Source: a virus (Duplodnaviria; Caudoviricetes). From it: DNA of 64,000 bases. Location of the stretch: the IMG/VR virus record IMGVR_UViG_3300025000_000055; one strand, written 5' to 3'. The position numbers were made by a program, and so were the translations under genes. Positions within the stretch are counted from its first letter, which is position 1. Each line of letters begins with the position of its first letter. Shown in pieces: positions 12,720 to 43,947 of this stretch. Under the pieces are notes generated by a model, which was not told the DNA's origin, ran no database searches, and saw only the letters and a list, made by a program, of their open reading frames with translations.

Positions 12720-15133
12720 TTATTTTTTTTTATTTAATGCTGATGAAAAATCAAATAAATCTTCTTCCTTATCTTCTTTAATTACTTTTCTTTCTACTGC
12801 ATTTCTTTTACCTTTTTTATCTATATTTAAATCAACACCTTCAAAATCTGTTGATAGACTTTCTTCGGATAATGAATGATCTAAATGAACATCGTCAATA
12901 AGTCTAATTCTATTACCCATTTCAAATGGATGATTGAAATAAGATAATTCATAAGTATCCCTATATCTTATCTTAACTCTTTTAAATGTTAAGTAATAAT
13001 TATTATCATTATTTTTCTTTTTCTCTATATTGATAATACACGTCCAGTCTGAGTTTTCTACGATTTCCCCTTTTAATTCACATAGATCGTTAATCTATGC
13101 AGTTCTCTTATGAACTTCCTTAGTTTTCACTAAGATAATAGACTATATCTTCATCCATTATATAATCAGTATAATGGAGTTTCCTATTTCGATTTAAAGG
13201 ATTCTCACCCACCTACATAGGCCCTACTCCTGTTGTGTATTTCAACACCAATGGGATAGTCGTTGAACCTTTCTCATAATAATATATATGAGACTTGGCT
13301 GCGGATTACTCAATCCTAAAACCTTGTTACTATACCTTGGTTGATTAGTCCAAGCCATTATATTATTACTAATATAATTTAGTAGTTTTAGGCTCTAAGA
13401 GCTTCCCCGACAATTAAAGAAATAATAACATAATATTACTATTATGAAGCCCTATTTATTAAGGCAGAGCCCACATTACCACGTCCAAGAAATCTCGCTA
13501 AATCCTCTTTGTTAGCCATTAAAGCTGAATCTACACTTATTGCACCAGACCTATTTAATTGATGGGCTGTGATTACAGGTATATCTTTATCGACGGCTAA
13601 ATTCTTTAATTCATTAGTTATATTTTTTAATTCTTCTTTTTCATCTTTAGCTCTTTCATAAGGTCTAATTCTTTTAATATAATCTAAAATCAAAGATATT
13701 ACTTCTTTACCATCATCAGATAATTCATCTATTATTGTATATAAATCAGCTGTTGATATTTCTCTATTAGAATAATATTTAATAATAATATCAATATCAT
13801 TACTATCTGATAAAACTAATTCTCCATCTTCTTTTAATTTTTTTATTACTTGTTTAGCTGTAAAACTTCTAATATTGTCTGAAGTTACAGTCATATTAAA
13901 TAATCTTTCAACACTTTCTTGACGTTATATTCACATAGGTCGTTAATCTATGCAGTTCTCTTATGAACTTCCCTAACTTTCATTAGGATACTAGACTATA
14001 TCTTCTTTCTTTTTAGAAAGTCTCTCCATTTCGATTTAAGGGAATTTCACCCACCTACTTAGGCCCTACTCCTATTGATCATTTCAGATCCAAAGGGATA
14101 GTCGTTGAACTTTATTCCTTATTATATAAGGAATCTTAGCTGCGGATCACTCAATCTCTTACCTTGTTACCATACCTAAGGAATTACCCTTCGCCACTTA
14201 ATATAATAATATACTAAGTTTGGTAGTAAGAACTCTAAGAGTTTTCCCGACAATTAAAAAAGAACCGGCCAATAATCTAACCGTGTTTTCCATTGTTAGT
14301 AATAATACGCAGGGTTTTTTACCAGGTTTTTTAACTTTCATACCTTTGTTATATTTCTTTATATCTATTGCTGTTTTTAAAAGAATTCCAGATTTAAATC
14401 CAGCGGGTAAACCTAAATATGTATAAAGGCATGTACTCATATAGCCTGGAGATAATATATGATTTAATTTTTGTATACCTGTTTTTAATATACGTGCAGG
14501 ATCTTTTAACTCATTAACTATATCTGTTACGACATCTTCAAATACACCTTCTTCTAAACTAAAAGTCTGTGTATTATCAACAGTTGAAACTTTTCTACTA
14601 TGATTTAATATTTTACTGCATATATCAATTAAGTCTTCATTTATTTCCTGAAAACTATTATATGAACCACTATCAAGACGTTCAATACTTTCATATAATC
14701 TATCCTTATAATTAAATAAATATGCATATTTAAGTCTATCAACAATAGCTTTATTAATATATTTAATCTCTTCATAATTTATCTTCTTATATATGAGTAA
14801 AGATTTTATAATCTCTTCTATTTCTTTGTTGAAAGTATCAGTTCTACAATAATTAATTATCGCATCTTCGTTCTCAAAACCTCTATCTAAACGAGCTTCT
14901 AAAGCTCTTTTAATAAAATAAATTCTCGATTCTATCTTTTCATTTCCTTCATATATTCTTTCATCTATAATTTCAAATAAATTCTTTAAATTATTTAAAG
15001 ATTTTCTTGATACTTGTGAAGAATTTTTAAATAAAAAACCTATCAACATATTTAACATACTAATATCAAATTTTAAGCTTATTTTTTTTACTTCATTCTC
15101 AACCACCTTAAATAATTTTTTTCTACTTACCAT
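12720..15133 (-). CDS. dnaB: DnaB-like replicative helicase, spliced: exons 15133-14280, 13922-13462, 13069-12720 (554 aa)
   Basis: Walker A GLPAGFKS; removing two introns restores TMENTV-QESVERLF and GNVGSA-WEIVENSDW; IIIKYY region, PVITAHQLNR. Exon lengths 854+461+350=1665 nt, in frame. Confidence 0.85.
13070..13461 (-). ncRNA. Group I intron (ORF-less, 392 nt), helicase intron 2
   Basis: Core elements AATTGTCGGGGAA (P), AATCCGCAGC (Q), GTTCAACGACTA (R), AAGATATAGTCT (S); P1 GCCU/GGGC with U.G; ends in omega-G. Confidence 0.9.
13923..14279 (-). ncRNA. Group I intron (ORF-less, 357 nt), helicase intron 1
   Basis: Same P/Q/R/S elements; P1 CGGU/GCCG; 3' end CCTATGTGAATATAACG; splicing restores the frame. 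Confidence 0.9.
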
Positions 15134-25582: not shown

Positions 25583-25624
25583 AAAAATAAGATAAGATGA
25601 TATTTAGTATCATCTTATCTTATT

Positions 25625-25888
25625 TTATTTAGTTACTAATATATAATTATCTTGAAATAATACACTATTTTTACCACTTTTACTATTATATTTTTCAATT
25701 ACTAAATTTTCTTGTTCCAATAATTCTTTTAACTCATTACTTATTAATTCTTTTAATTTACTTTTATAAACATCAGACATTACTAATTTACATATTTTAT
25801 AAATTTTACATTTATCTGCATTACAAATATAGTCTTCTCTTAAACAATTATTAGTAACAGCTTTCTTTAAATCACAATTTGTAAACAA
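25625..25888 (-). CDS. Hypothetical protein with Cys cluster
   Basis: GGGGG RBS; C..C..C..C in the N-terminus. Confidence 0.65.
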   Translation of the reverse strand: MFTNCDLKKAVTNNCLREDYICNADKCKIYKICKLVMSDVYKSKLKELISNELKELLEQENLVIEKYNSKSGKNSVLFQDNYILVTK

Positions 25889-26004: not shown

Positions 26005-26223
26005 TTATAATGAAAATGTTAAAAATTTTCCTAGAAAATTATTATCCATCCAATATTTAACTATATCTTCCCGTGTATATATCTTAATTTTATCAATTAT
26101 TTTATATACATAAGTAGTATTATTTTCACAATCAAAAAAGGCATTAATCATTGCTTCATCTAATGTTTTATGGTATCTTCCTTTATCAATACCCATCTCA
26201 ATATAATTAGATACTATACTCAT
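26005..26223 (-). CDS. Hypothetical protein (72 aa)
   Basis: AGGAGG RBS. Confidence 0.7.
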   Translation of the reverse strand: MSIVSNYIEMGIDKGRYHKTLDEAMINAFFDCENNTTYVYKIIDKIKIYTREDIVKYWMDNNFLGKFLTFSL

Positions 26224-26246: not shown

Positions 26247-26431
26247 TTATTTTGAATAAAAGTCGTTCATTCCAATATTTTTCAATACCATTTCTTCTAT
26301 ATATATTTTACATCATCACTTAATTTCATACTAAATATATGATTAGATAATCTAAATTCTGTCACTATAAAAGTTTCTATTAAACCATTCTTTAATTGAA
26401 CCTTTATCGTTTTTCTCATAAACAGTATCAT
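26247..26431 (-). pseudogene. Small ORF coupled to the ppk stop, apparently frameshifted at a (TA)n run
   Basis: ATG overlaps the ppk TGA; 44 codons to TAG at ...AAA TAT ATA TAG; the alternative frame continues EEMVLKNIGMNDFYSK*. Confidence 0.3.
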
Positions 26432-28551
26432 ATTATTTTCTTTATTTTAGACATTTTAGGAATTGTCCGTAATTTATAGTTATTAACAGCTTCATCCATA
26501 AAATACTCATGTATATTAAATACATTGTTAATAATCTTTAATAAAGAATATTTACCTTCTTTATCCATAACATATGTATTTACACTATCTTTAAAGTAAT
26601 ATGTTAATATAGATAAAGCTTTTATTTTTATATTTTCCTCATCTAGAGGAATTAAAATTTCTACCCTCCTATCTAAATTTCTAGTAAGTAAATCTGCACT
26701 TGAAATATAAATTCCTGTATTATGAAAGTAATACATACGGCTATGTTCTAAATATCTACCTATTATACTTCTGATAGTTATATTTTTATTAATAGGTTTC
26801 ATAGAACAAATTCCTCTACAAACAATATTAACCTTTACTCCATTTTCAGATGCAAAGTATAATTTCTTTATTATATCTTTGTCAGACAATGAATTTAATT
26901 TTAATGTAATACATGATTTCTTTTTATTTTTAGCTTGTTTAATTTCATTATCTATTAACTGATGTAATTTATTTCTTAAATTATATGGAGCAAAATATAA
27001 TTTATTTATATCTGTAGATGGTTCAGAAAAACCTGATAATATATTGAATATATTAAGTAAGTCCTCCCCTATCTTTTGATTAGAAGTGAAATAAGACAAA
27101 TCTGTATAAATCTCAGATGTTTTATCATTATAATTACCTGTGCCTAAATGAGAATATAATTTTAATCCTCCTTTATGAGTTCTTTTAACAACTACTATAA
27201 ATTTACAATGAGTTTTTAAATCATCCATTCCATGAATTATTCTACAACCAGCTAATTTTAATTTTTCTATTAAAGATATATTTCTATTCTCATCAAACCT
27301 AGCTTTTATTTCTAATAAAACACTAACTTGTTTACCATTTAAAGATGCTTTACATAAAGCTTCAACTATAGGTGAATCTATTGAAGAAACTCTGTATAAA
27401 GTTTGTTTAATGGCGACAATACTAATATCAACAGAAGCATGTTCAATAAATTTTACTATTGGATTAAAACTCTCATACGGATGATGTAATAAAATATCAT
27501 TGTTATCAATGGCTGTAAACATATCATGTTCACCTATTAATTCTTGTGGATATTGAGAACTAAATTCATCATACTGTAAAATTTGATTTTTAATTGGCAT
27601 AGAAATAAAAAATGAATAATCTAATATAGTATCAGTCTTAAATACATGACTTTTATTTAATTTAAATATTTTCGTTAATATCTTTATTACTTGTTTAGAT
27701 AAGTTATCTGTTACTTCCATAAATAGTGGATCACTATATTCTCTTAACAAGAGAGTTGATTTCATTCTATCAACAATATAAATGTCTATATCATGTTCCA
27801 TTTCAGTATTGGCTTCTTTTAAAATTCTCATGCACCCTTTATTTAAAATATTTTTATTAACAAATATTTTATTTAAGAATGTAAAAATAATATCTTCAAG
27901 AAAGATATATTTATTTGTTTCATCATCAGTTTCAATCTTATATAATCTGTCAAGATGTTCTATTGGTATTATAGATATAACTTGAAGATTATTATTATAT
28001 TTATCCTCTAATGATACAATTATATTCAATTGTTTAGATTTGATTGGTGGGAAGTCTTTAGTAGTATCATATGATATTGGTGTTAAAAGAGGGTAAATAT
28101 TTTTATTAAATAAATTTTCTATATATTCTTTCTCTTTCTTTGTTAAATTATCGTATTTGCAAATATGAATATTATTCTTGTTAATGATTTTTAATAAATT
28201 TTTATAACTACTATTTTGTAATAATTTAAATTCTTTAATAATATCTAGAACTTTATCATATTCATCCTCATAATTTAATCCAGATATATCTTCATTTCTT
28301 TCATTAATAAGATTATTTACTAAAGATGCAAATCTAACCATAATAAATTCATCTAAATTACTAGATGAAATACCTAAGAATTTTAATCTTTCTAATATAG
28401 GTACCTCATTTCTAATACTTTGATGTAAAACTCTTTTATTAAAATCTAACCAACTTAATTCTCTGTTAATATAAAAATGTGACTTATTAAAAGAATTAAA
28501 TTGTTTTATTTCATTATTTAATAAGGATGTAAAATTATTATTTAAAGTCAA
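26428..28551 (-). CDS. ppk1: Polyphosphate kinase 1, full length (707 aa)
   Basis: INRELSWLDFNKRVL, ERLKFLGISSSNLDEF, HHPYESF (autophosphorylated His), KQTLYR, ARFDE, KTHCK, HLGTGNYN, RYLEHSR, SSADLLTRNLDRRVE. Confidence 0.95.
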   Translation of the reverse strand: MTLNNNFTSLLNNEIKQFNSFNKSHFYINRELSWLDFNKRVLHQSIRNEVPILERLKFLGISSSNLDEFIMVRFASLVNNLINERNEDISGLNYEDEYDKVLDIIKEFKLLQNSSYKNLLKIINKNNIHICKYDNLTKKEKEYIENLFNKNIYPLLTPISYDTTKDFPPIKSKQLNIIVSLEDKYNNNLQVISIIPIEHLDRLYKIETDDETNKYIFLEDIIFTFLNKIFVNKNILNKGCMRILKEANTEMEHDIDIYIVDRMKSTLLLREYSDPLFMEVTDNLSKQVIKILTKIFKLNKSHVFKTDTILDYSFFISMPIKNQILQYDEFSSQYPQELIGEHDMFTAIDNNDILLHHPYESFNPIVKFIEHASVDISIVAIKQTLYRVSSIDSPIVEALCKASLNGKQVSVLLEIKARFDENRNISLIEKLKLAGCRIIHGMDDLKTHCKFIVVVKRTHKGGLKLYSHLGTGNYNDKTSEIYTDLSYFTSNQKIGEDLLNIFNILSGFSEPSTDINKLYFAPYNLRNKLHQLIDNEIKQAKNKKKSCITLKLNSLSDKDIIKKLYFASENGVKVNIVCRGICSMKPINKNITIRSIIGRYLEHSRMYYFHNTGIYISSADLLTRNLDRRVEILIPLDEENIKIKALSILTYYFKDSVNTYVMDKEGKYSLLKIINNVFNIHEYFMDEAVNNYKLRTIPKMSKIKKII

Positions 28552-28596
28552 ATCAATTACCTCCTAATATTTATTTATTTATTAATATTCACTGTT

Positions 28597-28606
28597 ATAA
28601 TATATA
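28597..28606 (-). promoter_or_regulatory. Early-type promoter TATATATTAT upstream of ppk1
   Basis: Exact motif, followed by the AGGAGG RBS. Confidence 0.6.
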
Positions 28607-28610
28607 AATA

Positions 28611-28642
28611 AAAAGAAGATAACTATATAGTTATCTTCTTTT
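28611..28642. terminator. 32-bp perfect palindrome
   Basis: AAAAGAAGATAACTAT|ATAGTTATCTTCTTTT. Confidence 0.65.
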
Positions 28643-28660: not shown

Positions 28661-29044
28661 TCATTTTTTATTTATTTGTAAAACATGACACCATTTAAAA
28701 AATCTATCACCCTGATTAGTAGATATGTTAACCCCTCTCCAAGTAATTGCTTTTACAATACCATATCCTAAATCATTATCATATTTATAAATAATAGTAT
28801 CACCTAAATTTACTTTTTTTCTAAATGTATTTTCGTCCACTGATTTATATCCTATTGAACCATAACTACGGTTTTTGATTATTTCAGTTTTTGCATATTT
28901 TAATAAATCTACCTTGTCCTCTTCCAAATTAATATAAAATCATTCTGGTATAACAAGTAGTTGGTTTTTGTTTTTATTAGATTTAATTTTTTTAACTAAC
29001 TCACTAAATTTTTCACCATATACAACTTCTATAATTATTACCAA
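28661..29044 (-). pseudogene. Hypothetical gene with one in-frame TGA (28940-28942)
   Basis: AAGGAGG RBS before TTG at 29044; frame stays open after the TGA into the ORF called at 28927, which has no RBS. Confidence 0.4.
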
Positions 29045-29102: not shown

Positions 29103-30347
29103 CTATTTTTCTTCATTAAATCCATATACATCTAACATTAATGTATTTATATATAAAGCATTTACATATATTATTAATCTATATGTTGAATATGTATTAA
29201 CATTTTTTGTTATTAGAGTTAATGTGCTAAAATCAATATCATACTCACCTATATCTCTATTTAACATTTTATTATCCATCATAACATAAAACTTCAGTAT
29301 TGTTTCTAATGGAATACCATGGGTTAAACAATAGTCAATGGATGCTAATATACTTTTATTTAATACTTGTTTTATATCCATTAAATCAGGTTGATCATTA
29401 TTTTCAACCTTATATAAAGGATAAGCATATAACGTCCATCCAGTAGGAATTTGTTCAGTAAATAAATTACTAATAGTAAACATTGGTATTATTTGATTTT
29501 TATTATCAACTATCGATAAATCAGTTTCTGTTATTATTCCTGATGATTGAGTTAGATAATAATACAAACCAGCACCATTAAATTCAGTTGAAACTGTAAA
29601 AGTTGTCGCATATGAATCTGCAATCATTCCTTTTTTATTTCCATCATCAATAGTTAAATTAGAAAAAGTTGTATCAATATTAACAGGATAAAATCTAAAA
29701 AATTCATCATTAGCTGAAGCATTTTTTACTTTATATGTTATTGGAAATATTGATACTCCATTCATATAATCTAAAAAAGTTTTAATACTTCCATCAATAG
29801 TATATAAATCAATTCCTATATCTTTAGCTAAAAGTTCCATAAGACCTCTAGGAATATAACTTTCTAAGCATGTTTCTAAAAAAAATGGTTTATCTTGTCT
29901 TATTCTATTCTTTAAATAATTAGCTTGATTTAATTGTTGTATTTGAGTATCTGTTATTATAGTTACATCAAAATACATTTTTATACGATTTAATAAATAT
30001 TTTATATAAACTCCTTTTGTTCTATCTTCAATAAATGGTTGTAGATTACTAAAATCTATATCCATAAAATTATCTGTAATTCTAGTAGTTAAATATGTTC
30101 CGTAAAGAAATGTATCACTATCATCTAATTCAATTCTTGGTTTAATTATTAATATAGGTTTATTCTTTTTTATAAATTCTTTATTTGAATTTTGAAATAT
30201 ATTAAACTGTTTATAAGCTATAGTGGAACTAATATGAATAGTTTTAAAATAATTTGGAGTAAATAAACTCCTAACAAATTCCGTCATAAAAGAAGTAATG
30301 TTACCAAATGTATGGGCCAATGATGTTTGAGCCATAGCATATTCCAT
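29103..30347 (-). CDS. Conserved jumbo-phage virion protein (414 aa)
   Basis: AGGAGG RBS; late-type promoter at 30379-30390. Confidence 0.65.
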   Translation of the reverse strand: MEYAMAQTSLAHTFGNITSFMTEFVRSLFTPNYFKTIHISSTIAYKQFNIFQNSNKEFIKKNKPILIIKPRIELDDSDTFLYGTYLTTRITDNFMDIDFSNLQPFIEDRTKGVYIKYLLNRIKMYFDVTIITDTQIQQLNQANYLKNRIRQDKPFFLETCLESYIPRGLMELLAKDIGIDLYTIDGSIKTFLDYMNGVSIFPITYKVKNASANDEFFRFYPVNIDTTFSNLTIDDGNKKGMIADSYATTFTVSTEFNGAGLYYYLTQSSGIITETDLSIVDNKNQIIPMFTISNLFTEQIPTGWTLYAYPLYKVENNDQPDLMDIKQVLNKSILASIDYCLTHGIPLETILKFYVMMDNKMLNRDIGEYDIDFSTLTLITKNVNTYSTYRLIIYVNALYINTLMLDVYGFNEEK

Positions 30348-31544: not shown

Positions 31545-34039
31545 TTAAATATTGTTAAATTCATATAGACCAATGATCTGGTCTTTTAATAGATTAAAAT
31601 CATCATTAAATAAACCATCATTTCTAGAAATAAACATGGAGGTCACTGGGTTAAAGGTCTTATTAAAGGCTTTTATATGTTTTTTAGACTTCAAGGATAT
31701 GATATTTAGAATATCTCCGTCAAACATTATGTTTTATATAAAACATAAACTGTATTTTCATACAGAATGGACTATATCTTCATCCTACTATTGTAGGAGC
31801 TATGTGCTTCCCAACCAGCCCACAAACTGATCAGTACTTTACTCACTTATATTCAATATATTTTACTTGATATAAGCTTTCAATAGTCTCTAGACCCATC
31901 TCCACTAGTTTATATAATTTAATATAATTTTTATCCATAAGATTCTCATATAAATAACTTCTATCAATGTTATCATCTAATCTAAAAACATACCATCCAC
32001 AAACACGATAACCATTTAAAATAAAATGACTAATTATATCTCTACCCTTACCAATAAAATTACCAAATAATTTTCCACTATCACAAATATAACAATTATT
32101 ATCTCTAAATACTATAACCCTTTTTGATTTTTTCTTTTTTGTAATACCTGTTTCTTTAAGACCTTTATGAGATTTTGACATTAATTCTTTGGTCGTTTGA
32201 TTTAAACAACCTTTTAAATCACCCAAGCGGGAATTATATCCAAATTCAGGATTTGTTGTATTAAAATACAGTATATAATATTTTTCCTTTCTGGATAATT
32301 CTTTTTTAGAAAAAGCATCATCTATTACTTCAAAACTAAAATTATGAAAACCTATTTTATTAATAATTCTCATAATTGTGTAATTATATTTTTTATTAGA
32401 AAAAACTTTACGTGTTTTATATTCATTAATTCTACGTATTATATTTTTAGTTTGACCGATATATTTTTTACCATTGTTTTTATTTGTTAGAACATATATA
32501 AACCCGTAAGGTTTTATGTTGATTATCATATATTTATTTTCACCTCCTTATTTTTCCTTATAAACTAGTGGAGTTTGGCACGGTATTGCCTGCTATCCAT
32601 ATTTCAGGACCGTAGGTTCTCTTAGTCAGTGTTTTCGCTTATGGACATGTCATATAGACAAGACTTGTAATTGTCATACAAGTAATCTTATTTAACTGAT
32701 ACCGTTAGCAAGTAATAATAAAATATTACTCACACCGCTTGTTAAGCGTTCACATAGAACTCGCTATATCATTACTGATACGCCGGACCTTGATGGTAGA
32801 TTGATCCGCATTTAAAACCTTTAATATTTGTATAGGTAAACTCATTGTATATTGATCTGTATTATCATTCTTAATATCAACTATTTTCATTAAAAGCATA
32901 GATCCATAATTAATTGTAGGGTTTCTATTGATAAGAACTTTTGGTTCCCACTTCTTTAATAAATATTTCATTATTTCATATATTTTATTATTATAAACAA
33001 TGGTACCTTTATACCAATATTCATATGCTTCATTCTCAGAAATATCATTTATTCTAGAAACATGAGTTATTATCTCATATTTATACAATTCTAAAAATGC
33101 CAAATAACCTAATTTAATTTCATTTGCTTTTAAAACAGGATCAGGTATTACAACGCAGCGGGCTGAAAAATTAATTTTACCACCGAGAATCTCCCATTTG
33201 ATATGACCTTTTCTTTGATCTATCTGTTTAAATATTAAATAACATAATTCAATTAATTTCTTTTGAATTATACTAAGAATTTTATTCTCATCTATATCCC
33301 CCCAGTCTTTATTCTTTCTAGTTTCTATTAAGTCTCTATCTTTTAATAGATTGCTTAAAGAAACTATTGGATTATATTTCTTATCCATAGAATTATAGAA
33401 AAATGATTCTCCTTTAAATTGAGAGGGTCTCAATACAGATGAATAAACTGGAATACATGAAGCAAATACTTTATCCTTCTCTTTATATAATTCTTCAATC
33501 ATTTCAATCTTATTCTTCTTTTTGGCTCTATAATAATCCATTATTTCATCAAATCTTTCTTTGAACTCCATAATACCAATACCTTTAAATGGAGTTTTAC
33601 CTTGTTTATTAATTATATGACCGTCCTTAGTAAATTCTTTATCATATTCAATAATTTCAAGGAAACCCTTTTCTCCAATTATTGATTTTAACATCCTGTA
33701 AAATATTGGATGTATTATAAAATACTCACCTAATTTAATCCAACCAGTAATCTTTAAATCAACATCTTTAAATTTAACTATTGTACCACATATAGAACAT
33801 TCTTCTTCATCATATAATCTACCTTTTAACTCACCACATTCACAAGTATATCTTTCAGCAAATGCATCATCATCTTCAAAATCTGTAGCAAATAAAGGTG
33901 ATTGGATACCATATTTAGATTTCTTCTGCTTACCTTTAAAAGCAGGTTCTTTTATTTCAAAACCTTTTCCTATAATAAAATCCTTTTCACACTCCTCATC
34001 CCAATTTAATTTTACTAGTCTAACTTCATCATGTTTCAA
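31545..34039 (-). CDS. rpoC: Non-virion RNA polymerase beta' N-terminal subunit, spliced: exons 34039-32804 and 31724-31545 (471 aa)
   Basis: Zn finger CECG..CSIC, GGKINFSAR, NRNPTI; splicing joins NAD+FDGD, the catalytic motif; C-terminal FNLLKDQIIGL resembles AR9 nvRNAP beta'N as recalled. Confidence 0.9.
31725..32803 (-). mobile_element. Group I intron (1079 nt) with GIY-YIG homing endonuclease, inside the NADFDGD motif
   Basis: P1 CGGAU/GUCCG; GCTAACGG (P4), AATACCGTG (Q), GAGACTA (R), AAGATATAGTCC (S); omega-G at 31725. Confidence 0.9.
31843..32529 (-). CDS. Intron-encoded GIY-YIG homing endonuclease
   Basis: GFIYVLTNKNNGKKYIGQT..RR..EY, E and GYN residues; NUMOD-like C-terminal half (ETKELMSKSHKG); AAGGAGGTG RBS. 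Confidence 0.9.
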   Translation of the reverse strand: MIINIKPYGFIYVLTNKNNGKKYIGQTKNIIRRINEYKTRKVFSNKKYNYTIMRIINKIGFHNFSFEVIDDAFSKKELSRKEKYYILYFNTTNPEFGYNSRLGDLKGCLNQTTKELMSKSHKGLKETGITKKKKSKRVIVFRDNNCYICDSGKLFGNFIGKGRDIISHFILNGYRVCGWYVFRLDDNIDRSYLYENLMDKNYIKLYKLVEMGLETIESLYQVKYIEYK

Positions 34040-37893: not shown

Positions 37894-40316
37894 TTATACT
37901 CCATCAATATGCGTTCCTCTATCTTTAAGTTCTGATTTCTTAGCACTATTAAACATATTTATTGTACTTAAATATCCTGTAATTCTTCTTACTCTATTAA
38001 TGTCTTCAGAACTACAGCTTGGACATTCCTTAGGATATACTCCCGAATAATTACATGAACGGCAAAAATCAACTGGGAAATTAATCCCACCGTACCCAAC
38101 ATCACACTCTTTCATATATTTAATAATATTAATTACAGCTTCAGTATTATAAAGAAAGGGAGATGATGACTCAATATAAGTAATATGACCGGCATTACAA
38201 TACTTATGAAAAGACCCTTCCAACATAATTTTACTGAACCAACCAATATTATATCCTACTGGTATATGAAAACTATTAGTATAATAATCTTTATCAGTAA
38301 CCCCTGGAATGATTCCAAATTGTTTTTTATCAAGTCTTAAAAATCGACCTGACAATCCTTCAGCTGGTGTTGCTAATAGAACAAAGTTAAGTTTTCTTTT
38401 AATTGTTTCATTATCACAAAATTTTCTCATTAATTTTATAATACTTAAACCAAGTTCATATACATCAGTATCTTCTCCGTGATGTTTACCAGTTAAAGAT
38501 ACTAATGCTTCTGCAAGACCAATAAATCCAATTGACATAGATCCATGTTTGATAGATTCTTCTATCTTATCATTATAATCTAATTTGTTAGAATCTAGAT
38601 ATAAACCTTGACCCATAATAAAAGGCATATCTCTTACAAGTAGATTCTTCTGTATGTCATATCTATGATTAAGTTGATCAAATATAAGATTTGATTTACT
38701 TTCAAGTAATGTAAAAAACTTTTCAATACTACCTTTTGCTTTTATTGCAAGTCTAGGTAAATTTAATGTTGTAAATGATAAGTTACCTCTCTTATCTGTA
38801 GTTTCAGGTCCATTAATATTACCAATAACCCTAGTTCTACAACCCATATAAGCTACTTCAGCATCACCTGTGTATTGCTTATTAAAACTAGAGTCCATAA
38901 ATGAAAAAGTTGGATTTAATTTAGTACCAGCTATTTCACAAGCTAATTTAAATAAATCATAATTTGGATCTCCTGGTTCTACATTAACACCATCTTTAAC
39001 TTTAAAAATAATATTTGGAAAAATTGGATTTTCTCCCTTACCTAAACCGGCTTTATATGCAAGTAAAATATTTTTTGTCACTTTTCTTCCTGCGTCACTC
39101 ATATCAGTACCAATATTTAAACTACTGAAAGGTACCTGAGCTCCAGCTCTAGAATGCATACTATTTAAATTATAAATAAGAGCTTCACATGCTTGATAAG
39201 CCTCGTTATCATTAGCATCAACAAAAAATTCAGCCATATCCTTATCAAAGAAAGCAAATGATTGACCACCGTGCATATCCACTGTACCGCCTCTTTTGAG
39301 GTATTTCAAACGGGTTAGACTATATCATATACCTATTTTTTATATAGGTACCCTGGCACTTCGGATCGGGATTTTCACCCTTATTACCCCTACTCTACTC
39401 GCTTCGTGTATCAATGATACCTTATTTTCAACATCAGAAAAGATGTGTATAGCTTTCGATAGTCGTTAGCGTTTCTCTAATATTTTTAAAAATATTAGAG
39501 CTTACGACGGTATTACCTGCTATCCATATTTCAGGACCGTAGGCTCTCTTAGAAAGTGTATTCGTTACTATATAACTAGTACTTATTTAACTTTTACCGT
39601 TAGCCAGATATTATATCTGACACCCATCTATTGATGGTTCACCAGGTTATTCAATGTACATTACTGTACAAGGGAACAAATTAATTATTCTGAGCACTTT
39701 GTAAAACTATAGCCGCTAATGCAGTTGCACTACTTGTTCTTTTAGGCGGTCTAATCCAACCATGTCCATTATCAAAACCTTTAGTTAGTATTTCTTTTAA
39801 AGGTATTTGTAAACATGTTAGAGTTTTTCCATAAAAATCTAAATCATGTATATGAATATAACCTTCTCTATGGGCATTTGATATTTCTTCAGGTATCATT
39901 CTAGATAAATAAAATTTTCTTGAAGCTTCGCTTGCAATTTGTAACATTTTAGCCATTGGTCCAGTACCAATATTTGCATTTTCTCTTGAAGTTTCTTTTA
40001 TTATATCTTCCACACAATCCATTAATTCACTTTGGCCTTCTCTAATACGAGTTCTATTATTTCTATATAAAATATATGCTTTTGCTGTTTTAGCTTTCCC
40101 ATTATCAATTAAGACTGTTTCAACAACATCCTGTATGTCTTCAACATTATGTATATCTTTACCTAAATTTTCTAATCTATTATAAACTTCTAAAGCTAAT
40201 TTAAAAGAAGTTGAATTATCATTTCCTCCTAATGACTGAGCTGCTTTAAAAATACAACTAGCCACTGTTTCAATACTAAAATCAACTATTCTACCATCAC
40301 GTTTCATAACTTGCAT
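37894..40316 (-). CDS. nrdD: Class III (anaerobic) ribonucleotide reductase, spliced: exons 40316-39687 and 39279-37894 (671 aa)
   Basis: ATP cone VMKRDGR, IHIHDLD; splice gives QSAQN-DMHGGQS; MGCRT, ATPAEG, YYTNSFH, CxxC..CxxC, RRITGYL glycyl-radical motif. Confidence 0.95.
39280..39686 (-). ncRNA. Group I intron (ORF-less, 407 nt) in nrdD
   Basis: P1 GAAU/GUUC; GCTAACGG, AATACCGT, AACGACTA, ATGATATAGTCT; omega-G at 39280; shares a long P5 segment with the beta'N intron. Confidence 0.9.
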
Positions 40317-42392: not shown

Positions 42393-43947
42393 TTATATAA
42401 TTAAGTTATTTAATTTAACTTGTGATATCTGGGATGTACTATTGTGAAATTTCTTCATAGATAAATTAACTAATGTAGATGAAACTCTTGCTGATGTTAA
42501 TCCAATATTAGTTATATTTAACTTCTCATACATAAGTCCAGCACATACACGACATAATTTCTTAGATATACAACCCATAGGTGTTCTCATTTTAACTTTA
42601 ACTCCAAAATATTTATGTATATTATCATCATCTAATAAAATTAATTTGTTCCCTTCCATAATATATCTATATAAATAGTCGTTAATAGTATTTTTAGTTA
42701 TTATTACATCCATTAATCCTTTAGAACCACAATTACTCCCTTTATCATCTAAAACAACAGCTTGTAAAGCTGCAATAATTTTTTTAGAAAAATAACCTGA
42801 ATCAGCTGTTCCAATAGCTTTTGGATCTATATATTCACATAGGTCGTTAATCTATGCAGTTCTCTTATGAACTTCCTTATCTTTCGATAAGATACTAGAC
42901 TATATCTTCATCCTTATTATTTCTAATAAGGAGCTCTCCATTTCGATTTAAGGGATTCTCACCCACCTACTTAGGCCCTACTCCTATTGCTTATTTCAAA
43001 GCCAATGGGATAGTCGTTGAACTTTTCTCATATTTATGAGACTTAGCTGCGGATTACTCAATCCTAAAACCTTATTACTAATATAATTTAGTAGTTTTAG
43101 GCTCTAAGAGCTTCCCCGACAATTAAAAGAGTAAAACATAATATTACTATTATGCCGCCCATAATTTATAGGCACCTGTTATAATAGCATTACCATAAAC
43201 AGCTAAATCTTCTTTTGTTATACCTTCCATTAAACAATTTTCAACAAAATCAAACTCTCCTGTAGACGGATTATATACAGGGCCTTTCATAATATTAGTA
43301 TTTTTATAGTTATTACTAAAAGTACCTCTAGCACCAGATTTATAAAGTTCATAACCAGTGTCATATTTTAATTCTTCTTCAGCTAATTTTATTAATTCTT
43401 TTTCAATTTTAACAGCTGTTATAATATCACCCTGTTTTAATTTATCTTTATTTTCTTTTATTAACTTTTTTTTCATATCAATAACTTTAGGATTGGGTTT
43501 AAATAATTTCATTGTATATGAACCAGAAATAACAATATGAAATTGTTGTGCTAACCATTGAATATCATTAAGATATTTAACCATAATATTGGTATCTATT
43601 TTATCATTTAGTAATGCTTTAGATAATTTATCTTCTATTTTTAAAAGTACTTTTTTATCTATAGTTTCATTTATATATCCCAGAATATTAACTAAGCTTC
43701 TTTCAATTATATATTTATTATAAATAAATAAACCAATATTAGTTCTAACCTTATCTTTGTTAAAATACTCACTTGGTTTTAAATCAAACTCATCCCATGT
43801 TTTAAATCTACTTTTAATAATATTAATTTTCTTATTAATATCTTTTTTAACAGTATCACCAAATAATTCTATTAATAATTCAAAAGTTATATCCTCGGGT
43901 TTTAAATTTAATAGATATTCTTTATCTTTTTGAGATATCAAATCCAT
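42393..43947 (-). CDS. rpoC: Virion-type RNA polymerase beta' C-terminal subunit, spliced: exons 43947-43170 and 42826-42393 (403 aa)
   Basis: Splice restores GAYPKAIGTADSGYFSKK (bridge helix); KMRTPMGC..KKLCRVC.G; LSMKKFH trigger loop. Virion assignment is inferred from late promoter and context. Confidence 0.8.
42827..43169 (-). ncRNA. Group I intron (ORF-less, 343 nt) in RNAP beta'C
   Basis: Nearly identical to the intron at 13070-13461; P1 UGCCU/GGGCG; omega-G at 42827. Confidence 0.9.

Follow-up and report, generated by a model that had tools for sequence, protein, structure and literature searches.

Background

Polyphosphate kinase 1 (PPK1) catalyzes the reversible reaction ATP + polyP(n) <-> ADP + polyP(n+1), with polyP denoting polyphosphate, and can also phosphorylate ADP and GDP at the expense of the polymer. 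PPK1 is usually seen as a cellular enzyme, and its viral copies as scattered metabolic passengers. Genes of host phosphorus metabolism are carried sporadically by cyanophages in the form of pstS, phoA, and phoH, which serve phosphate uptake and scavenging. The locus described here lies in a stretch of 64,000 nucleotides (the window) of the IMG/VR virus record IMGVR_UViG_3300025000_000055 (Duplodnaviria; Caudoviricetes), and comprises an intact ppk1 gene behind a promoter of the early phage type. In contrast to the phosphate-stress genes of cyanophages, it encodes an intracellular polymer kinase which is kept by most of its phage lineage, in a phage that is devoid of PhoH.

Virus-encoded ppk1 and ppk2 have been described as auxiliary metabolic genes in viromes, where they are read as boosting host polyphosphate metabolism (PMC13188868; see also Li et al. 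2025, Water Res 268:122678, cited there). The virome reports are community surveys, in contrast to the defined jumbo-phage lineage with conserved synteny, one promoter class, and near-core status of the gene that is presented below. The closest counterparts in cultured phages are found in Vibrio phages vB_VcorM_GR7B and GR11A (MT366760 and MT366761, ≈ 195-208 kb), which have a full-length annotated PPK1 like that of the window, at 31-33% identity. Alignment of the split RNA polymerase subunit against GR7B gave no match, a weak negative as this search was run without a positive control; judging from the sequences, GR7B probably belongs to a separate phage group. The literature yielded no paper on these two Vibrio phages, nor one linking polyphosphate kinase with jumbo phages or huge phages. 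Virus-encoded ppk1 as such is already known, both from virome surveys (PMC13188868) and from annotated phages in GenBank, such that the original prediction for this DNA, made by a model from the letters alone, is not supported where it calls PPK1 seldom described in phages. What appears to be new is the near-core, syntenic, early-gene status of ppk1 in a lineage related to Bacillus phage AR9.

The Phage PPK1 Protein

The gene and its product are described by a single feature:

26428-28551, minus strand: ppk1 coding sequence, 707 amino acids, TTG start, with catalytic His448 and His468

The protein was assigned with the family models TIGR03705 and Pfam PF13089/PF02503/PF17941/PF13090. The Pfam domains PP_kinase_N, PP_kinase, PP_kinase_C_1, and PP_kinase_C follow each other in order and near full length (E 7e-29 to 5e-65), and the TIGR03705 equivalog score of 677 bits lies well above the curated cut-off of 465.85. 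The NCBIfam subfamily models that match the phage protein bear the name 'RNA degradosome polyphosphate kinase'. Residues 25-665 align with E. coli PPK (PDB 1XDO, E 4.8e-96), with His448 and His468 placed on H435 and H454, the autophosphorylated histidine and the second essential histidine, respectively. The ATP site of the E. coli enzyme is reportedly formed by N45, R375, S380, R405, Y468, F488, P507, R564, H592, and R621 (Zhu et al. 2005). The counterparts of all these residues are present in the phage protein, namely N65, R387, S393, R418, Y482, F502, P522, R579, H603, and R629, and together with H448 and H468 they are invariant in 30 homologues with identities down to 37%. Hence, the claim of an intact 707-residue PPK1 with all catalytic motifs is borne out. 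With E. coli PPK1 (1XDO/1XDP) the phage enzyme has in common the four-domain architecture, the phospho-histidine, the second histidine, and the ATP-site residues; on the other hand, the two differ by a large sequence divergence, and the phage gene is viral, has a virion-RNA-polymerase promoter, and resides on a viral-only branch.

Comparison with the 90% and 87% orthologues gave a ratio of nonsynonymous to synonymous substitution rates (dN/dS) of ≈ 0.13. The product of ppk1, the only PPK1 gene in the genome, is predicted from its sequence to be a functional phage polyphosphate kinase 1.

The Predicted Early Promoter of ppk1

The following elements precede the coding sequence:

28611-28642, minus strand: intrinsic terminator with a 14-bp stem, a 4-nt loop, and a T-tail, which closes the upstream late unit and insulates ppk1
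28597-28606, minus strand: early promoter core TATATATTAT of the AR9 type (virion RNA polymerase), with A at -3
28590, minus strand: predicted transcription start, a G seven nt past TATATATTAT and preceded by T, giving a 39-nt leader (by analogy with AR9)
28560-28565, minus strand: ribosome-binding site AGGAGG, 8 nt 5' of the TTG start

Transcript mapping in AR9 had established the early promoter, used by the virion polymerase, as AAATATATATTAT-(6N)-G(+1), and the late promoter as AACA-(6N)-TA/G (PMC5312081). The ppk1 promoter follows the early pattern in its core, its 6-nt spacer, and its G start: TATATATTAT begins five bases past the terminator hairpin and is followed by the spacer AACAGT and then by the G at 28590. 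A difference resides in the three bases 5' of the core, which are AAA in AR9 and ATT at ppk1; the genome described here keeps only the A at -3 (32/35 copies), i.e., A-N-N, and this A is present at ppk1.

The bare 10-mer TATATATTAT is only weakly above chance, with 12 copies in the window versus 7.1 ± 2.7 in shuffles. The distribution of the copies across the genome carries far more weight: 35 of the 42 are intergenic, with intergenic DNA making up 10.7% of the genome, and a first-order simulation of the intergenic segments gave 3.3 ± 1.7, corresponding to an about tenfold enrichment. Most of these intergenic copies (30/35) are co-directional with a gene start at most 150 nt away, and their flanks show A at -3 in 32/35, T at +6 in 24/35, and a purine at +7 in 35/35, all three of which are found in the copy at ppk1. 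Furthermore, the exact 10-mer recurs upstream of ppk1 in 19 distinct relatives, some of them at only 33-45% identity.

The strong ribosome-binding site, the own promoter, and the upstream terminator of the original prediction were all recovered here, the promoter now matched to the AR9 early consensus including the +1 G, and the view that ppk1 is wired into the phage programme finds support in these elements and in the phage-borne nature of the gene. Terminator-like sites in the region number 3 versus 0.2 expected, whereas sigma-70-like promoters are not enriched (27 versus 44 expected). A late promoter in front of ppk1 was considered as well; the only candidate, AACA-(5N)-TA, overlaps the early motif with a spacing off the consensus, and is not claimed. 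On the other hand, a perfect late motif, AACA-TTCATT-TA, is located at 30390-30379 before the upstream gene of a neck protein (see below), behind that gene's own terminator. The locus resembles AR9 in this respect too, with early units amid late genes that have AACA-(6N)-TA promoters. Judging from the promoter match, ppk1 would be an early unit among late structural genes.

Distribution, Synteny, and Ancestry

Relatives were gathered via the split RNA polymerase subunit and not via PPK1, which gave 37 IMG/VR records, 23 of them with PPK1. A completeness of at least 90% is assigned to 14 of the records, and 12 of these have PPK1, as a full-length protein in ten and as a form of ≈ 600 amino acids matching the catalytic half only in two; the remaining two are devoid of it. 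PPK1 is thus already common in this phage group, an outcome that the original prediction had listed as counting against it, and the sporadic acquisition it implied is not what is seen: with 12 of 14 near-complete relatives carrying PPK1 in conserved synteny, ppk1 is a near-core early gene of the phage group rather than an odd acquisition. A tblastn search of a phage collection of 50,697 records found PPK1 in only 17, including Vibrio phages GR7B and GR11A; no Bacillus phage was among the 17, in a collection not checked for the presence of AR9 and PBS1.

Database searches with the protein returned one match at 100% and one at 90% identity, with the next hundred or so at 45-67%, many on contigs of 200-275 kb. 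In IMG/VR, 52 viral PPK1 loci were identified with a profile, mostly on contigs of 200-290 kb. Many independent phage contigs of 200-275 kb have an orthologue (43-90% identity) at this very position, behind the gene of a tail-terminator-like neck protein. Seven PPK1-bearing contigs were inspected, including one from a 'Herbinix sp.' metagenome-assembled genome and one from a Romboutsia ilealis assembly, and in most of them the order is split RNA polymerase subunit, a protein of ≈ 414-429 amino acids, sometimes one or more small genes, and PPK1, followed by a converging block that includes a protein of ≈ 875 amino acids. The conserved upstream neighbour in the window is:

29103-30347, minus strand: neck protein, tail-terminator-like, 414 amino acids, phrog_21946 ('unknown function')

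In 28 loci this neighbour, with identities of 23-92%, immediately precedes ppk1 in the same orientation, and it was found beside none of the best 80 bacterial PPK1 genes. Its AlphaFold model (pLDDT 72) matches the phiKZ neck chain 9xps_w (E 3.6e-15) and tail terminators of the T4 gp15 type, while the best BFVD match is an uncharacterised PBS1 protein of 416 amino acids; on the basis of the model, the 414-residue protein can be annotated as a putative tail-terminator/neck protein of AR9/phiKZ-like phages. A role as polyphosphate partner of PPK1 was considered and rejected on account of this structure. As the gene is structural, its linkage to ppk1 reflects shared ancestry and not shared function.

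An assembly artefact or a passenger, i.e., host DNA joined by mistake or a recent, functionless moron, had to be weighed at this point, since PPK1 is overwhelmingly a cellular enzyme and the source record, 187,268 bp long and rated 100%/complete by CheckV, is a linear metagenome contig. Many assemblies obtained independently from different samples have this gene at the same position; a phage early promoter precedes it, the dN/dS value is low, and no cellular homologue exceeds 41% identity. Its composition is that of the phage, with 22.0% GC and 12.3% GC at third codon positions as compared to 24.7 ± 3.8% and 13.4 ± 3.7% for the phage genes, and its codon-usage distance ranks fourth lowest among 37 long genes. 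These values make a mis-assembly with host DNA, which had been raised with the prediction, very unlikely, and synteny across independent contigs excludes it in practice. Furthermore, ppk1 is located ≈ 26 kb inside the window, with the neck protein on one side and other phage genes beyond, and not at a contig edge. Taken together, synteny and selection already refute the artefact or passenger explanation, and the residual probability accorded to it is negligible.

The top cellular PPK1s in a survey of 185,579 species genomes, at most 41% identical, come mainly from Lachnospiraceae and other Bacillota. In both trees that were calculated, every viral PPK1 is found on one side of a single branch, with an SH-like support of 94 for the viral/bacterial split in FastTree (45 viral and 77 bacterial sequences) and an SH-aLRT value of 97 in IQ-TREE (25 viral and 29 bacterial sequences); the window PPK1 falls within a viral-only clade with a support of 99-100. 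The simplest reading is one old capture, with a Bacillota-like host as the probable donor, then vertical descent with occasional loss or trimming. The gene is long-resident in the lineage and not freshly borrowed from a host.

The length of PPK1 varies among the relatives. The variants of ≈ 600 amino acids in the related IMG/VR records G017, G037, G026, and G030 cover only model positions ≈ 235-655, the catalytic C1/C2 half, and long frames with extra N-terminal sequence occur in G027 (1041 amino acids) and L043 (798 amino acids).

Some of the viral copies are filed under bacterial names. Contigs CARSOV010000002.1 (GCA_949063285.1, 244,210 bp, 'Romboutsia ilealis') and JAQUYQ010000001.1 (GCA_028691795.1, 213,358 bp, 'Herbinix sp.') both display the jumbo-phage gene order around PPK1, and for this reason WP_304576597.1, labelled as PPK1 of Romboutsia ilealis, is probably a phage protein; the same probably holds for the PPK1 of a 'Brevinematia bacterium' on a 3.6-kb contig (62% identity). 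Public 'bacterial' PPK1 records of Romboutsia ilealis, Herbinix sp., and Brevinematia are thus probably phage genes, which matters for surveys of phosphorus cycling. The 244-kb phage contig in the Romboutsia ilealis assembly and the cultured Vibrio phages with PPK1 offer systems for testing.

Proposed Function

Building on the identity of PPK1, its regulation, and its conservation across the clade, we infer a direction of flux and a benefit to the phage: a phage-controlled phosphate and energy buffer is the most likely role, and probably the best explanation of the locus as a whole. The RNA polymerase injected along with the DNA would, going by the promoter match, transcribe ppk1 within minutes of infection. 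The enzyme would transfer phosphate from ATP to its own His448 and extend polyphosphate chains in a processive manner, such that early in infection phosphate and ATP energy could be banked as polyP. With rising ADP or GDP, PPK1 would run backward, and at later times polyP would be returned as ATP and GTP to serve the nucleotide demand of a replicating and transcribing genome of ≈ 190-250 kb. Once host transcription collapses, phage PPK1 would sustain the turnover of the polymer. In this context one should recall that AR9 infection strongly reduces host mRNA levels (PMC5312081), as a consequence of which a phage relying on polyphosphate turnover would need its own enzyme. Furthermore, phages P1 and fd require polyP for their lytic growth (Li, Rao, Kornberg 2007, cited by PMC2435150). 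The gene content of the phage agrees with the need for such a buffer, as PPX, PPK2, NDK, and PhoH were all absent from its genome.

Several points weigh against this role. The sequence says nothing about the net direction of flux. Likely host families mostly possess a PPK1 of their own, as do 34 of the 40 additional genomes that were sampled in the 'Herbinix' bin's family, and the phage copy may only top up a host function. The two near-complete relatives without PPK1, and the two with only the ≈ 600-residue form, indicate that the gene is dispensable in some backgrounds. As to its ancestry, the PPK1 trees are unrooted, many of their rows are compositionally skewed, and the bacterial rows were picked by similarity. 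The idea of a host lacking polyphosphate metabolism was considered as well: the 'Herbinix' bin itself, of unknown completeness, has only the phage PPK1, without PPK2 or PPX, as against the 34 of 40 family members with PPK1. In another genome of the same family, a PPK1 at G049:C1:240303-242327 scores 669 bits, like the phage copies, versus ≈ 900 for the family's own; placed ≈ 240 kb along the first contig, it may belong to another binned jumbo phage.

Use of PPK1 in the reverse direction only would turn the enzyme mainly into a drain on pre-existing host polyP granules, acting as ATP regenerator and nucleoside-diphosphate kinase, and the nucleoside triphosphates would feed the two RNA polymerases of the phage and its class III ribonucleotide reductase, which reduces triphosphates. 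PPK1 reportedly has polyP-driven nucleoside-diphosphate kinase activity, a result attributed to Kuroda and Kornberg in 1997, and the phage encodes NrdD (PF13597, 4.8e-148) without an NDK; in a likely host family, PPK1 is found in the majority of genomes, which could thus hold polyP. However, it is the PPK2-type enzymes that specialise in polyP use, yet the clade retains the full processive PPK1 including the N and head domains. A weak point on the same side is that bacterial PPK1, PPK2, and PPX were all missing from the one bin with a related phage contig, at unknown completeness. A purely reverse enzyme is considered distinctly improbable.

On the other hand, the early timing would also fit polyP as a takeover signal, an early burst that would reprogramme the host via nucleoid/Hfq condensates, RNA polymerase or the degradosome, or via activation of Lon, with ribosomal and other proteins broken down to amino acids. 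According to PMC2435150, Lon is activated by polyP to degrade ribosomal proteins, and the polymer is required by P1 and fd for lytic growth; the degradosome also appears in the name of the matching NCBIfam models. However, none of the relatives has a gene for Lon, Hfq, or another polyP effector linked to ppk1, the conserved neighbour is a structural neck protein, and the action of polyP on Lon and Hfq has been described in Proteobacteria, whereas the likely hosts are Bacillota. Such a signal, which is compatible with the phosphate and energy buffer and does not exclude it, appears unlikely as the principal role.

A stronger claim would be that early polyP synthesis is obligatory and lineage-defining for a whole clade of AR9-related jumbo phages that infect anaerobic Bacillota, with the polymer in a dedicated role and not a mere top-up, for instance as a phosphagen making phage replication independent of the host's energy metabolism, as a scaffold, or as an organiser of condensates. 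This is regarded as unlikely.

As to the significance of the locus, it may be emphasized that one viral PPK1 lineage combines purifying selection, one genomic position, and one promoter class with PPK1s that have diverged to ≈ 35-45% identity. This pattern argues for polyphosphate as a lever that jumbo phages use regularly when infecting low-GC anaerobes, and making or using the polymer looks like an old and retained trait of host exploitation in this phage group.

Genome Context

The GC content is ≈ 24% across the whole window, which encodes gyrase A and B, a Dda-like helicase, SbcD, a split RNA polymerase subunit, NrdD, and virion proteins. With window positions 20-40 kb as query, megablast gave no match among the phages of GenBank or the plasmids of PLSDB. 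Further features, in the order of their position, are:

13118-13471, minus strand: group I intron, RF00028, Rfam gathering score reached
13971-14313, minus strand: group I intron, RF00028, Rfam gathering score reached
25584-25626, no strand assigned: bidirectional terminator with a 19-20-bp stem, which ends the ppk1 unit and the converging plus-strand genes
25625-25888, minus strand: open reading frame (ORF) of 87 amino acids, no known family, last gene ahead of the bidirectional terminator
26005-26223, minus strand: ORF of 72 amino acids with its own AGGAGG, no terminator separating it from ppk1, conserved only in the nearest relative
28661-28927, minus strand: ORF of 88 amino acids, no known family, between the neck gene and the terminator
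32750-34039: split RNA polymerase subunit, phrog_2987 match, orthologues carrying PF00623

The ORFs of 72 and 87 amino acids downstream of ppk1, which match no family and show conservation limited to the nearest relatives, are possibly co-transcribed with it. Going by the phrog_2987/PF00623 matches, the phage encodes split multisubunit RNA polymerases, as expected with an AR9-type early promoter. A free-standing gene resembling GIY-YIG homing endonucleases (31843-32529, minus strand; PF01541 6e-09; phrog_7168) sits between the RNA polymerase subunit gene and the neck-gene block, and a similar gene occurs nearby in the relatives L006 and L007.

The NrdD open frame at 37894-39309 (minus strand, 471 amino acids) covers only positions 101-562 of the PF13597 profile, and the N-terminal part may be provided by a separate upstream exon or ORF. 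The region at 38-40 kb is the GC peak of the window (31.5%).

The two group I introns score 64.9 and 55.6 bits with RF00028. Each of them is followed by the 12-mer AGAACTGCATAG, of which a third copy is found at 42852-42863; the structured-looking stretch before it, at ≈ 42864-43150 (minus strand), is probably a third, sub-threshold group I intron. The 12-mer ranks among the top over-represented upstream words since the crude gene calls count introns as intergenic. Finally, the genome record and the window sequence differ in three bases (10176, 10178, and 10179) and are otherwise identical.

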